The translations under genes and the position numbers were made by a program. DNA of 64,000 nucleotides from a phage: the NCBI GenBank assembly GCA_024674815.1, contig GCA_024674815.1_4104.1, one strand, 5' to 3'. This document shows positions 6,681-19,836 of the stretch, one piece after another (positions within the stretch are counted from its first letter, which is position 1; the number at the start of each line of letters is the position of its first letter). The notes under the pieces are model-generated. The model was not told the DNA's origin. It saw nothing but the letters and a program-made list of their open reading frames with translations, and did not search any database.

Positions 6681-6718
6681 ATTATAGCAAAAAGGGCCGA
6701 CCGAAGTCAACCCTTTTC
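6681..6718 (-). promoter_or_regulatory. PeSL-like cassette: terminator hairpin overlapping sigma70-type promoter
   Basis: Minus strand: GGGUUGAC-UUCG-GUCGGCCC + U-run; TTGACT in stem, 18-nt spacer, TATAAT. Confidence 0.6.
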
Positions 6719-6721
6719 TTG

Positions 6722-7843
6722 TTATTGTTTTACACCACCCCATTTTTCATAGATGGCAATAATTTTATCTATGTTGTTTGGTGTCGTAGTTTCAGTATAC
6801 CCATCCGGCATTTCACGTTTAGTTAAAATACCTTTTCCAAACAGTTTCTTGCATTCTTTTTCAGCTTGCTTACACTGTTCTACCGTTGGGAATAGATAAA
6901 AACATATTATTTCAACATTAAATACTGATTTACTATTTTGCTGGTAAACACGTTTCCCTTTTTGTTTTTCAATACCATATTTCAATGCAACGGGTAAACC
7001 ATTGTCTGAAATATTATTAATATAAGCATATTTCTGTGAAAGCCCAGCAGCAAGTGGATGTCCCTGACCCTTAAAAAAATTACTTGGTAGAATATCAAAC
7101 TCACCAAATTCAGGATCAATAATAGTTACTTTTGTTTTGTTATTAATATAATTAACTTTACTATAATCAAAATCAACATCAGTTCTTCTTTTTTTTGCTT
7201 CTTCAATGAATTGCTCTGTTGTTTTTTTTACGGTGCCACCACGCATTGGATGTCCACTACCACTCAAAAAATTACCAGGTGTAACTTCAAACTCACCAAA
7301 TTCAGGATCAATAATAGTTATTTTTGTATGATAATTAATATAATTAACTTTACTATAATCAAAATCAACATCAGTTCTTCTTTTTTTTGCTTCTTCAATG
7401 AATTGTTCAGTTGATGATGAGCGTGATTTTTTTTGTACCATTCTACCACGTGCAAAATGATTTATACCACTCAAAAAACTATTTGGTAGAATATCAAACT
7501 CACCAAATTCAGGATCAATAATAGTTATTTTCGTTTTAGCATTAATATAATTAACTTTACTATAATCAAAATCAATATCAGTTCTTCTTTCTTTCGCTAA
7601 AGAAATAAAGTGTTCTTTGGATTGTGTAAGTTTTTTTGATATTTTTTGTCTTCCACGCATAAGATGTCCACTACCACGTAGAAAACTATCTGGTGTAATA
7701 TCAAACTCACCAAATTCAGGATCAATAATAGTTACTTTTGTTTTGTTATTAATATAATTAACTTTACTATAATCAAAATCAACATCAGTTCTTCTTTTTT
7801 TTGCTTCTTCAATGAATTGTTCAGTTGTTTTTTTAGCACACAT
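6722..7843 (-). CDS. tandem-repeat protein (4 x ~60 aa), possible homing-endonuclease-like DNA-binding protein
   Basis: Four repeats of TEQFIEEAKKRRTDVDFDYSKVNYIN-KTK-TIIDPEFGEF; distinct C-terminal domain. Confidence 0.6.
   Translation of the reverse strand: MCAKKTTEQFIEEAKKRRTDVDFDYSKVNYINNKTKVTIIDPEFGEFDITPDSFLRGSGHLMRGRQKISKKLTQSKEHFISLAKERRTDIDFDYSKVNYINAKTKITIIDPEFGEFDILPNSFLSGINHFARGRMVQKKSRSSSTEQFIEEAKKRRTDVDFDYSKVNYINYHTKITIIDPEFGEFEVTPGNFLSGSGHPMRGGTVKKTTEQFIEEAKKRRTDVDFDYSKVNYINNKTKVTIIDPEFGEFDILPSNFFKGQGHPLAAGLSQKYAYINNISDNGLPVALKYGIEKQKGKRVYQQNSKSVFNVEIICFYLFPTVEQCKQAEKECKKLFGKGILTKREMPDGYTETTTPNNIDKIIAIYEKWGGVKQ
7050..7843. repeat. four tandem ~180-bp near-identical DNA repeats inside CDS 6722..7843
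   Basis: Near-identical stretches at ~7141-7210, 7321-7390, 7561-7620, 7741-7810. Confidence 0.8.
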
Positions 7844-8072
7844 TACTTAAAACTCCTTTCCAGTACTGAACCCGTCCAGCACCATTAATCTTAGCCTGAA
7901 TCTTATCTTTTTCAACAAGACCTTCTTTGTAATCGATGGAAGTATTATCGCACTTAATTACATCCAAGTCAAGTACTTCTTGTGTACTTAATGAAGTATT
8001 GTCTGCAATTTGTTGTAAAGTAATAATATCAGTACCGAAGAATTCTGCTAAACGTATAAAAGATAGTTTCAT
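7833..8072 (-). CDS. hypothetical protein
   Basis: 79-aa ORF downstream of PeSL promoter. Confidence 0.5.
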   Translation of the reverse strand: MKLSFIRLAEFFGTDIITLQQIADNTSLSTQEVLDLDVIKCDNTSIDYKEGLVEKDKIQAKINGAGRVQYWKGVLSNVC

Positions 8073-8098
8073 GTATTACCTCTCGTTTCGATAAAATA

Positions 8099-8130
8099 AT
8101 TATAGCAAAAAGGGCTGACCGAAGTCAACC
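8099..8130 (-). promoter_or_regulatory. PeSL-like cassette (terminator hairpin + promoter)
   Basis: gggctgaccgaagtcaaccc hairpin; TTGACT-18-TATAAT on minus strand. Confidence 0.6.
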
Positions 8131-8137
8131 CTTTATG

Positions 8138-8497
8138 TTATTCTAATTCACTCATAGTAGTAATAGTTAAGCCCATTTCTTCTGCAATGTTGCATAACAG
8201 ACCAACTGCATTACGAAGAATATCAGTGTTGTCCACCGAGAATGATGAGTTTTCATTTACAGTTGAAGACTCAATGTAGTACTCAAAATAACGAGAAGTT
8301 GAACGCACAACTTTAACACCTTCATACTTCTGTAGTTCATAGTTGATACGCTCGATGAGTGAATCTTCCAGTACTCGATAGTCACCATTCATTCCACGTT
8401 TCCATCCATCAGCAGGACGGAAATAAAAAGTTTTTGTACGTTGAATTGTTGAGATTGTTAGTGGGTTGTATTCCGCGATTTCACTTAAAGATGCCAT
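8138..8497 (-). CDS. hypothetical protein
   Basis: 119-aa ORF ending just before PeSL. Confidence 0.6.
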   Translation of the reverse strand: MASLSEIAEYNPLTISTIQRTKTFYFRPADGWKRGMNGDYRVLEDSLIERINYELQKYEGVKVVRSTSRYFEYYIESSTVNENSSFSVDNTDILRNAVGLLCNIAEEMGLTITTMSELE

Positions 8498-8603
8498 GTT
8501 GTATTCCTCATTTGGTGATGTACATAATACAGAAAGATAGAACAGGTGTCAATGTTTATATCTCAAATATCCAAATACTTTGGTGTAGCACATACTACAT
8601 CAA

Positions 8604-8798
8604 CTAATCCTCGCTGAAGACAACAATAAGGAATGACACGAACAATGCCGCATAACAAGGAGCTATCTTCATGTACCACGGTACTTCATAATACCATGTA
8701 CCCAATTCATCCCACGAAAAGAGTATACTCAAACCGAAGCCGATTAGCGATAGTACAATAAAAGAAATCCAGAAACGCTTTGAATATACTAATAACAT
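8604..8798 (-). CDS. small membrane protein
   Basis: 64 aa with hydrophobic core. Confidence 0.45.
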   Translation of the reverse strand: MLLVYSKRFWISFIVLSLIGFGLSILFSWDELGTWYYEVPWYMKIAPCYAALFVSFLIVVFSED

Positions 8799-8836
8799 GT
8801 TATGTTCCTTTGTGTAACCGAAGTCAATCCTTTCCT

Positions 8837-18359: not shown

Positions 18360-18381
18360 TACTATACCTTATAAACAAAAA

Positions 18382-18401
18382 GGAATTCATTTAAGAATTC
18401 C
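18382..18401 (-). terminator. terminator hairpin (bidirectional-looking)
   Basis: ggaattcatttaagaattcc flanked by A-run and T-run. Confidence 0.55.
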
Positions 18402-18411
18402 TTTTTTACAA

Positions 18412-18705
18412 TCATTTATCTAACATACCATTGTGCAAACGTTCATATACTTCAGTTCGACGCAAATTCACAATATCTTCTGCGTATTTTAATGTAAATG
18501 CCCATGCTTTTGGATGTACGTTAAGCTTCATACGAATTCGATTTTTCATCAACTCTCCACTTAAACGAATAAATTCGTGTACACCACGACTACCGTATTC
18601 AGTAATTAAATCATTAATGTACATATCACGAAGAGTTTCATCTGCACATTCTTTAACCATTTCTACGTCAGCGACGATGCTTTCATTAACTGAAGTACTG
18701 ATCAT
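18412..18705 (-). CDS. hypothetical protein
   Basis: 97-aa ORF. Confidence 0.55.
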   Translation of the reverse strand: MISTSVNESIVADVEMVKECADETLRDMYINDLITEYGSRGVHEFIRLSGELMKNRIRMKLNVHPKAWAFTLKYAEDIVNLRRTEVYERLHNGMLDK

Positions 18706-18717
18706 TTTTAATTTACC

Positions 18718-18984
18718 TTATTTAAATTCGACTGTAATTTTATCACCTTCAACTACGAACTTACAGTTGTAGCGACGTGCCATATCCATGTACATATGCT
18801 CAGAGTACCAAGGAACATCAATAATCGGATGCTCTGCATATTGTAGAACTTCACGGTCGCCCACTGTAGTAATGATGAAAGGAATGTTCATCTCTCGTAA
18901 AAACAGTTCAGCACCAGGAGAACGATTAATAAATTCAGTATCATTACGTAAAGTAAATCCATTATATTGTAATTTAAGCTTCAT
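18718..18984 (-). CDS. hypothetical protein
   Basis: 88-aa ORF. Confidence 0.55.
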   Translation of the reverse strand: MKLKLQYNGFTLRNDTEFINRSPGAELFLREMNIPFIITTVGDREVLQYAEHPIIDVPWYSEHMYMDMARRYNCKFVVEGDKITVEFK

Positions 18985-18998
18985 ATGTTATCCTCTAT

Positions 18999-19343
18999 TC
19001 AATACCATTCTTTAAAACCATTAAGTTCGGCTACGTGAGTGATTATAACACATATAACATTCAGGTCAAGTATAATTTGATCATAATTTAATTTTATACG
19101 ATCATCATTATATGCTCTAAAAACTACATCGTAATCAAAGAAATTTGCGTTTTCATCATTCATTGAAACGATTCGGTATCTACGTCTTCCATCTGTATTG
19201 AATATAGTTAAACACTGTTGAAACTTTCTCATTAACTGTTTAGATAGGATATTATAATATTCAATATCTTTTTGTGAATTACGTGGGTCATCAGGAAAAT
19301 AGAATGAAACAAATTTCTTTAATTCTATTTGAGTTTTATCCAT
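18999..19343 (-). CDS. hypothetical protein
   Basis: 114-aa ORF. Confidence 0.55.
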   Translation of the reverse strand: MDKTQIELKKFVSFYFPDDPRNSQKDIEYYNILSKQLMRKFQQCLTIFNTDGRRRYRIVSMNDENANFFDYDVVFRAYNDDRIKLNYDQIILDLNVICVIITHVAELNGFKEWY

Positions 19344-19776
19344 ATATTACCTCATGTGTTTCTCTTTTACTTTGTCGGAACTCATCCTTTGCTTCCTTAA
19401 CTGACATGATACGAACTAATTTAGCACTACCGCAATAGTACTGAACCTGATTACGACCAATGTCTACATGGTGGTCTGGAACTTCATATACAGATATAGC
19501 AAACCCAGCACGATGCAATTTACCCAAGTCCATAGTGAAGAATCTGAACAAATCTTTCAAACTTTGACAGCCAAATACCCATCCACTTTTGATTGAATAG
19601 ATCCCATCCTCAGTTGGTTCAGGTTGGAATTGAGAAGGTGTAGTCATAAGCAAACGGTCAAATCCATTTTTAGTACTGTATCTAGTTGAATACCGTGCAA
19701 ACGGACCTACAGTTCGTGCAGGATCTAAGTTAGGTTCAATGTAACTAAATTTAAGTTCAAAACGATATACATACAT
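19336..19776 (-). CDS. hypothetical protein
   Basis: 146-aa ORF directly downstream of PeSL promoter. Confidence 0.6.
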   Translation of the reverse strand: MYVYRFELKFSYIEPNLDPARTVGPFARYSTRYSTKNGFDRLLMTTPSQFQPEPTEDGIYSIKSGWVFGCQSLKDLFRFFTMDLGKLHRAGFAISVYEVPDHHVDIGRNQVQYYCGSAKLVRIMSVKEAKDEFRQSKRETHEVIYG

Positions 19777-19804
19777 AATTAAAATCCTCTAATTTATTAA
19801 GAGA

Positions 19805-19836
19805 ATTATAACAAAAAAGGCTGACCGAAGTCAACC
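19805..19836 (-). promoter_or_regulatory. PeSL-like cassette (terminator hairpin + promoter)
   Basis: ggctgaccgaagtcaacc hairpin; TTGACT-18-TATAAT. Confidence 0.6.

Follow-up and report, generated by a model that had tools for sequence, protein, structure and literature searches.

Predicted terminator-promoter cassettes between minus-strand genes of a Rak2/121Q-like jumbo coliphage and their likeness to PeSLs

Introduction

Why does one short intergenic sequence recur between the minus-strand genes of a phage, and what might it do there? The question is raised by positions 6,681 to 19,836 of a 64,000-nucleotide stretch of phage DNA (GenBank assembly GCA_024674815.1, contig GCA_024674815.1_4104.1; the whole stretch is called the window below), in which closely similar hairpin-bearing elements, here called cassettes, stand between genes. 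The explanation that best accounts for the observations as a whole, to which we assign a probability of about 0.78, is that the cassettes are compact, co-oriented modules combining a hairpin, a U-run and a sigma-70 promoter, that they would also act as substrates for recombination, and that they resemble the promoter-early stem-loops (PeSLs) of T4-like phages.

The region is 97–99% identical to the Escherichia phages E9.1, phAPEC6, slurp01, 121Q, PBECO4 and G17, all of which are Asteriusvirus. By this identity the window phage is likewise an Asteriusvirus, a Rak2/121Q-like jumbo coliphage, and not one of the T4-type phages with which the initial annotation of the sequence had associated the cassettes. 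The Asteriusvirus relatives are Rak2-like jumbo myoviruses with genomes of ~350 kb and lie outside Straboviridae.

Architecture and Distribution of the Cassettes

When the window is searched with the motif GGGTTGACTTCGGTCAGCCC, allowing up to three mismatches, exactly eight sites are found, all on the minus strand at the hairpin positions of Table 1 and all with no more than two mismatches, against none in 100 dinucleotide-preserving shuffles. A truncated ninth copy is also present, and the eight copies and this half copy fall within 13 kb. Motif search of the remaining ~50 kb of the window gave neither further copies nor other hairpins with TTGAC in the stem. Each cassette, about 65–75 bp in length, extends from the stop codon of one gene to the ribosome binding site (RBS) and ATG of the next on the coding strand, and its elements follow in the order of stop codon, three to seven A residues, hairpin, T-run, usually TGn and a -10 hexamer, a leader of ~20 nucleotides (nt), GAGG and ATG. 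RBS and ATG lie within about 40–45 nt in all eight copies.

The consensus hairpin on the transcribed strand is GGGTTGAC-UUCG-GUCAGCCC. All eight copies fold into stems of 8–13 bp with a 4-nt loop (-14.1 to -18.9 kcal/mol, z from -4.2 to -5.3); the GC-clamped stem proper, of 8–9 bp, holds four to six G-C pairs, and three to seven U residues follow directly. The cassettes thus have the build of intrinsic terminators, a GC-rich hairpin with a U-rich tract, the U-run being interrupted in cassettes 6 and 7. Only two copies pass a generic terminator scan, the remaining copies carrying G.U pairs, and Rfam at its gathering threshold matches only tRNAs, with no match at the cassettes. The same nucleotides have the appearance of a promoter: TTGACT occupies the 5' arm and loop of each copy, the T-run falls in the promoter spacer, and a promoter scan finds a -10-like hexamer at a spacer of 17–18 nt from TTGACT in seven of the eight. 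The hexamer is TATAAT in four copies and TATGAT, TATCAT or TATACT in the others, with the TG of an extended -10 in five.

The initial annotation had described at least eight ~35-bp elements between minus-strand genes, each with a UUCG hairpin (one copy with a variant loop), a U-run, and a sigma-70-type promoter made of TTGACT in the stem and TATAAT about 18 bp further on. Number and position of the copies agree with this description. The repeat unit is larger, about 43–76 nt as delimited by a repeat finder (families D2 and D3), and reaches from the stop codon of one gene to the start codon of the next; the variant loops are two (UUCA at 9394 and UAAG at 16575); and the promoter build applies to all copies save cassette 5, which has TAAATA.

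The family is restricted to one region per genome. Searching for the hairpin consensus, as the initial annotation had proposed, places all exact matches in the complete 121Q genome at 97.4–118.3 kb of 348.5 kb, and those in RaK2 at 200–226 kb. A 45-nt cassette query matches 190 phage records; among the records listed, Asteriusvirus genomes carry 6–10 sites and Klebsiella Rak2-like phages 8–15, while KVP40-like, Aeromonas, CR3/CB7-type and other phages give sporadic matches. In the more distantly related Klebsiella phage RCIP0023, 21 kb around denV contain at least 12 copies, which keep TTGAC, the T-run and TGnTAT(A/T)AT at a 17–18-nt spacer with UUCG, GAAA, AUAA or UUUG as loops.

The G17 (MK327931) and UE-S1 (ON568341) entries annotate the orthologous hairpins solely as predicted terminators, and the ARNOLD calls of the G17 depositors (scores of -13.5 to -17) coincide with them. 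Our literature search found no prior description of such composite elements in Rak2-like phages, nor any demonstration there of promoter or terminator activity or of mini-circles; the papers on phAPEC6, fEgEco12 and UE-S1 make no mention of promoters or terminators, and the one on CBB, a related phage, reports RpoD-like promoters and ARNOLD terminators as separate features.

Dual Constraint and Proposed Function

The pattern of variation among 91 full copies from 12 genomes (the window and 11 relatives) bears on function. TTGAC, at positions 4–8, is invariant except in one truncated copy that slipped through the filter. Its partner positions 16 and 17 vary in 8 and 10 copies, respectively, every change in intact copies preserving U-A or U.G, and the outer pair of the stem is G-C, G.U or A-U and never A.C. 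Valid pairs number 123 of 128 on the transcribed strand and 106 of 128 on the opposite strand. An invariant 5' arm with a drifting partner suggests that terminator and promoter constrain the element together, the 5' arm being read both as stem and as -35 box and the 3' arm as stem only, and the better pairing on the transcribed strand is as expected of a stem that acts in RNA.

The following mechanism is proposed from the sequence. In transcripts that arrive from upstream, the hairpin together with the U-run would act as an intrinsic terminator and as a stabiliser of the 3' end. In the DNA, TTGACT (the 5' arm and the first loop base) would be the -35 box of a promoter for host sigma-70, with the T-run lying inside the 17–18-bp spacer; the need to fit into this spacer would explain why the U-runs of the cassettes are short. 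The new transcript would start ~7 nt past the -10, at the A of ATCGAAAC or of ATCAACT, and would not contain the hairpin. In this way the cassettes would cut the early-gene region into autonomous transcription units. The units that they delimit contain 8, 1, 1, 3, ~13, 1+2, 2 and at least 7 genes, and the cassettes would accordingly be insulators of gene blocks and only sometimes of single genes, where the initial annotation had each of them insulate an individual gene. A bidirectional terminator was also considered and rejected, as all genes share one orientation and the opposite-strand hairpin is made weaker by the wobble pairs.

The preference for one strand bears on a different proposal, that the hairpin is primarily a site in DNA, either a cruciform or the target of a dedicated recombinase or nuclease, and that it resembles a regulatory signal only secondarily. 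The conserved stem of PeSLs could be the target of a protein, as Arbiol et al. 2010 (PMC2839356) speculated, and the crossover at the half-cassette falls within the loop or the 3' arm. The U.G wobbles of the cassettes, however, are A.C mismatches on the other strand, and pairing that is kept on the transcribed strand only fits an RNA structure better than a symmetric site in DNA would. In the Klebsiella copies the loop is free to change from one stable tetraloop to another, and no recombinase gene associated with the region was found in the annotations of relatives or by Pfam search of the flanking proteins. A primary role as a DNA site is highly improbable.

Several points weigh against the terminator-promoter interpretation. 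Termination and initiation in Asteriusvirus are inferred from sequence alone. The U-runs of cassettes 6 and 7 are short or interrupted (UUUCUUU and UUUGUUG), and an 18-nt spacer is suboptimal for sigma-70. Promoter-like matches over the whole region number 75 where 76.6 are expected in shuffled sequence, so that the region-wide scan is uninformative and only the fixed spacing inside the repeat carries weight. Nor is the shared -10 a set of eight independent observations, since common descent or gene conversion connects the copies of any one genome.

The result of the region-wide scan, together with the terminator-only labels of the G17 and UE-S1 records and the lack of a good -10 in cassette 5, could be taken to mean that the cassettes are nothing but intrinsic terminators, with TTGACT as mere stem, the TATAAT-like hexamers as AT-rich background and no transcription starts. 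A pure stem would not show the asymmetry between the TTGAC arm and its partner described above. Further, TGn and a -10 recur at a fixed 17–18 nt in copies from Escherichia and Klebsiella phages, Aeromonas phage 65 and nt-1 whose flanks are unrelated, RBS and ATG stand within ~40 nt of every copy, and the leader matches known transcript starts of strong early promoters. The last point concerns cassettes 2 and 3, whose leader ATCGAAACGAGAGG resembles the annotated transcript starts of the T7 A1 (ATCGAGAGGG) and A3 (ATGAAACGACAG) promoters, combining the A1 (ATCGAGAGG) and A3 (ATGAAACGA) starts; T7 A1 also has TTGACT as its -35. The T7 A1–A3 promoters differ from the cassettes in having no terminator hairpin over the -35 and in not being dispersed between genes. 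Conversely, the terminators annotated in G17 and UE-S1 share with the cassettes the GC-rich stem, the 4-nt loop and the U-run, but that annotation misses the embedded -35, the extended -10 at a fixed distance and the repeated nature of the element. Terminators without promoters are thus quite unlikely to be the whole of the matter.

Recombination at the Cassettes

The second part of the interpretation, that the cassettes are also places of gene exchange, was assessed by blastn of window positions 3000–23500 against the 11 relatives, scoring insertions or deletions (indels) and replacements of at least 40 nt. Comparison with related genomes for cassette-bounded indels, likewise suggested in the initial annotation, yields 25 unique events, and 15 of their 50 ends fall in cassette units where 2.2 are expected; none of 20,000 random placements gave as many. 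In six events both ends lie in cassettes. When ends are confined to gene junctions, 12 of the 27 junction ends lie at the 7 of 49 junctions that have a cassette (P=1.5e-4), and 6 of these 7 junctions are hit as against 10 of the other 42 (Fisher P=0.003).

The structure of the junctions is more informative still. Three blocks are missing from UE-S1, those between cassettes 2 and 1, 5 and 4, and 7 and 6, and BF17 lacks the block between the copy at 8817 and cassette 2. Each of these four events leaves a single hybrid cassette to which one parent contributed the upstream flank and the other the downstream leader; at the hybrid junctions the high-scoring segment pairs overlap by 17–63 nt. Hybrid copies with a different parental flank on each side and with overlapping alignments are the signature of exchange within a repeat. 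As near-identical direct repeats of 43–76 nt, the cassettes are substrates for homologous recombination, as the genome comparison shows; exchange between two of them deletes or swaps the intervening genes and leaves one hybrid cassette behind. Given repeats of 40–70 nt, collapse during assembly is an unlikely source of the UE-S1 deletions. The interval between cassettes 7 and 6 holds one gene in the window, three genes in Ec-M-J and BF17, and a different 257-aa open reading frame (ORF) in UB, and mosaic leaders, such as that of the cassette-8 orthologue in Ec-M-J and BF17, are consistent with gene conversion.

Not all of the plasticity can be assigned to the cassettes. Sixteen of the 25 events touch no cassette, and there are precise gene deletions without cassettes, such as that at 10157–10436. 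The hotspots at 6717–7855 and 9481–9488, both near cassettes, hold HNH or GIY-YIG genes in relatives (at the slot of cassette 1 in E9.1, phAPEC6, Ec-M-J and BF17; an inserted HNH gene at 9481–9488 in UB and Ec-M-J), and homing could explain the events there. Each event may moreover be either a deletion or an insertion. One could conclude that homing endonucleases and illegitimate recombination produce the indels and that the cassettes are bystanders which merely mark longer gaps between genes. Yet non-cassette junctions of 52–115 nt are present and less often hit, the enrichment persists when gene junctions are the null, and the four hybrid cassettes carry parental flanks on each side; pure bystanders are unlikely. 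The cassettes appear instead to be one of several contributors to the plasticity of the region. The suggestion of the initial annotation that the region was assembled by cassette-mediated shuffling is borne out as far as cassette-bounded indels with hybrid junction copies are concerned, and falls short for the majority of events.

Comparison with PeSLs and Other Phages

In the definition of Arbiol et al. 2010 (PMC2839356), a PeSL is a recurring intergenic motif in which an early promoter of sigma-70-like type is joined to a stem-loop, and which is delimited by the stop codon of the upstream gene and by the Shine-Dalgarno sequence and start codon of the downstream one; the stem-loop may overlap the -35 box, and the cassettes correspond to this listed subclass. 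Like the PeSLs of T4-like phages, the cassettes combine promoter and stem-loop in one intergenic motif with equal bounds, recur in a region rich in small ORFs with no assigned function (most ORFs flanking cassettes are without a Pfam match) and lie near indels with degraded half copies. Half-PeSLs of this kind near indels were noted by Comeau et al. 2014 (PMC4122927), who gave for phage nt-1 the consensus A3-4G3-loop-C3T3-4 and TTGYVH-N17-TAWWAT.

Direct inspection of nt-1 (40 kb scanned) extends the likeness. Elements of the form AAAAGGGTTG(A/C)N-loop-NCAGCCC-TTTTTTG-TAT(T/C)AT, which may also be written AAAAGGGTTG(A/C)N-loop-NCAGCCCTTTTTTG-TAT(T/C)AT, occur at 32582, 44632, 54947, 55552 and 66748 and agree with the consensus of Comeau et al. 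They have the GGGTTG...CAGCCC hairpin in common with the cassettes, as well as the T.G wobble at the equal stem position, the T-run, the position of the -10 and a leader of ATCGAAACGAGA or ATCAACT..GAGG, the latter being common to cassette 1 and the element at 54947. Aeromonas phage 65, also of Straboviridae, has an identical 20-nt hairpin followed by TGC-TACTAT. At the sequence level, therefore, nt-1 PeSLs are built alike, as the initial annotation had proposed for the architecture, and the assignment of the cassettes to PeSL-type elements is supported by all the sequence tests made.

There are differences as well. Promoter and terminator activity and mini-circles have been shown experimentally for the PeSLs of phi1 and RB49; the promoter and terminator activity of the cassettes is predicted from sequence. 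The cassettes are far more uniform, with one hairpin sequence and a UUCG loop, and are confined to a single region of ~14 kb per genome; one of them bears a late-type TATAAATA box. Their host is an Asteriusvirus of ~350 kb, a difference that concerns where PeSLs occur and not how they are built.

Function dictates most positions of the element (GC clamp, TTGAC with its complement, a stable tetraloop, T-run and TGnTATAAT), and convergence can explain the resemblance of the hairpins. The shared leader appears harder to explain in this way. ATCGAAACGA stands at +1 of six nt-1 and two D481 promoters and, within the window, solely in cassettes 2 and 3. The match to nt-1 was found by direct motif search; BLAST with the -10 and leader alone did not recover Vibrio phages, the shared 12-mer being too short, and gave T1-like phages instead. 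Since the leader also resembles the T7 A1/A3 starts and occurs in T1-like phages, it is possible that it represents a functional optimum. That the whole cassette (hairpin, extended -10 and ATCGAAACGAGA-type leader) is one horizontally mobile module and not a convergent design, taking neighbouring genes along and spanning Rak2-like jumbo phages, Straboviridae of the KVP40/nt-1-like and Aeromonas kinds and in part T1-like Drexlerviridae, is an idea that we regard as rather doubtful.

The leader in its longer form, ATCGAAACGA(G/A)A, is located in the window at 8092–8081 and 9374–9363 (minus strand) and at the predicted +1 in nt-1 (L014) at 2625, 11106, 18173, 25595, 29105 and 37621 and in L013 at 22778 and 28309. 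It occurs also in the T1-like phage CJ19 (L015), and nt-1/KVP40-like vibriophages carry it with or without the hairpin.

PeSLs have been proposed to act as linkers through which T4-like phages can exchange small accessory genes while the regulation of the neighbours stays intact. A PeSL-type build in a jumbo phage of the Rak2/121Q kind, where natural isolates show clean hybrid junctions, would extend this mechanism beyond Straboviridae, and the copies of the Klebsiella relative RCIP0023 would extend the build across the Rak2-like clade. The occurrence of a common leader across phage families raises the question of horizontal movement versus repeated reinvention of such modules; were the mobile-module idea true, PeSLs would be a pan-phage currency of gene exchange and not a peculiarity of the T4 lineage. 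On the practical side, annotation could be improved for ~70 public jumbo-phage genomes, in which the sites are now unannotated or labelled as terminators only, and compact 70-bp terminator-plus-promoter parts could serve phage engineering. The cassettes would also mark points of insertion and removal of accessory genes in therapy-candidate phages (phAPEC6, UE-S1, JP4 and others).

Cassette 6 and a Putative Late Gene

One cassette probably departs from the early-promoter character of PeSLs. Cassette 6 is overlapped at its -10 by TATAAATA, the T4-type late-promoter consensus. Only two minus-strand copies of TATAAATA exist in the 64 kb, at 16373–16380 in cassette 6 and at 17022–17029, where ~10 are expected from base composition. 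Both stand just upstream of genes whose phAPEC6 homologues (gp035c and gp037c) were detected in virions by mass spectrometry (PMC7247149); gp035c is the homologue of the 425-aa gene downstream of cassette 6. Cassette 5, at the other end of this gene, has no good -10 and is probably mainly a terminator for the upstream gene, that is the one with the virion-protein homologue. With TATAAATA replacing a good -10 in cassette 6, the two cassettes probably bracket a late-expressed 425-aa gene inside the early region, and one cassette would then probably drive late rather than early transcription.

The 425-aa gene (15079–16356) has in-frame insertions of ~300 nt in seven relatives, at 15389–15444 and 15770–15792, which suggests a variable repeat or domain.

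Individual Cassettes and Neighbouring Genes

The coordinates of the cassettes, their signals and the breakpoints found at them are given in Table 1.

Table 1. Cassettes of the window with their hairpins, promoter elements, downstream start codons and the breakpoints observed in relatives.
Feature	Span	Strand	Hairpin	kcal/mol	-10 region	Leader	Downstream ATG	Breakpoints
Cassette 1	6653..6721	-	6694-6713, GGGTTGAC-TTCG-GTCGGCCC, T-run	-18.0	TGC-TATAAT, 6681-6686	ATCAACTGATGAGG	6652	6717-6725, common to six relatives; 6735, UE-S1
Cassette 2	8073..8137	-	8112-8131, exact consensus	-18.9	TGC-TATAAT, 8099-8104	ATCGAAACGAGAGG	8072	8090-8140, UE-S1, BF17, Ec-M-J
Half-cassette (ninth copy)	8799..8836	-	GGATTGACTTCGGT at 8817-8830, 5' arm and loop only				8798	8817, BF17
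Cassette 3	9353..9428	-	9394-9413, loop UUCA, U.G wobble	-17.4	TGC-TATAAT, 9381-9386	ATCGAAACGAGAGG	9352 (denV)	9418-9428, six relatives
Cassette 4	13924..13992	-	13965-13984	-18.7	TGT-TATGAT, 13952-13957		13923	14000, UE-S1
Cassette 5	15008..15078	-	15050-15069, 7-nt T-run	-15.7	TAAATA, poor		15007	15045, UE-S1; 15072, SD-2_S15
Cassette 6	16357..16418	-	16392-16411	-14.5	TATACT, 17-nt spacer		16356 (425-aa gene)	
Cassette 7	16533..16601	-	16575-16594, loop UAAG	-18.3	TATCAT, 16562-16567		16532 (37-aa gene)	
Cassette 8	19777..19840	-	19818-19837	-14.1	TGT-TATAAT, 19805-19810		19776	

The half-cassette has no 3' arm left and gives no fold, and an RBS directly adjoins what remains. BF17 carries a full hybrid cassette at this position, and the half-cassette is a degraded copy and a recombination scar. 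At cassette 8 the TGA stop codon of the upstream ORF (19831–19833) lies inside the TTGAC arm, so that coding end, terminator stem and -35 overlap; the G17 record has the same overlap of coding sequence and terminator.

Pfam search of ten flanking proteins gave a clear match only for denV (Pyr_excise), downstream of cassette 3, and a 256-aa ORF matches AAA ATPase marginally above threshold. The gene downstream of cassette 4 is annotated in relatives as a T7 gp0.7-like protein kinase, and Pfam gave no match for it. The 373-aa ORF adjoining cassette 1 (6722–7843, minus strand) contains four tandem repeats of ~69 aa (175–207 nt, at 7047–7827) and has no convincing Pfam match. Its slot is occupied in relatives by HNH or GIY-YIG endonuclease genes or by other ORFs; the 373-aa ORF was itself considered as a homing endonuclease and is not recognisable as one in the window.

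In phAPEC6, slurp01 and PBECO4, where denV encodes 144 aa, ~34 nt stand in place of a 391-nt segment (8558–8948) that in the window comprises the half-cassette, a 64-aa ORF and the final 37 codons of denV, an ORF of 171 aa here. T4 DenV has 138 aa. The length in these relatives is near that of T4, and the 171-aa form of the window may be the derived one.

Other Features of the Window

A second promoter family, scattered over the window and present in Klebsiella phage RCIP0023 too, is without a terminator hairpin. It has the form TTGAC(A/T)-N7-8-TCAGTACTG-TATAAT, the spacer of which includes a conserved palindrome, AGTACT, and the members of the family lie on the minus strand at 11224–11256, 21577–21609, 25891–25923, 43513–43542, 43583–43612 and 43982–44014, and also at 5817–5881. 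Next to the last of these, at ~3377–5816 (minus strand), is a tandem array of tightly packed, apparently paralogous ORFs of ~104–141 aa without cassettes. Its copy number varies: UB and UE-S1 show a duplication-type overlap at 5688–5816, and SD-2_S15 has deletions.

Another terminator-like hairpin, AAAAAAGGAATTC-ttaaat-GAATTCCTTTTTG (-14 kcal/mol), is found at 18360–18411 (minus strand) in the cassette-free indel hotspot 18134–18659; in the Ec-M-J orthologue, paired changes (GGAATCC/GGATTCC) leave the stem intact. ARAGORN places six tRNA genes (Thr, Asn, Met, two Ser, Gly) at 40551–45813. The Rfam list lacks the tRNA-Gly gene and has a borderline tRNA match at 44539–44617 that is absent from ARAGORN. 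Tandem and dispersed repeats (families D4, D6 and D8; 44166–46088) lie between the tRNA genes.

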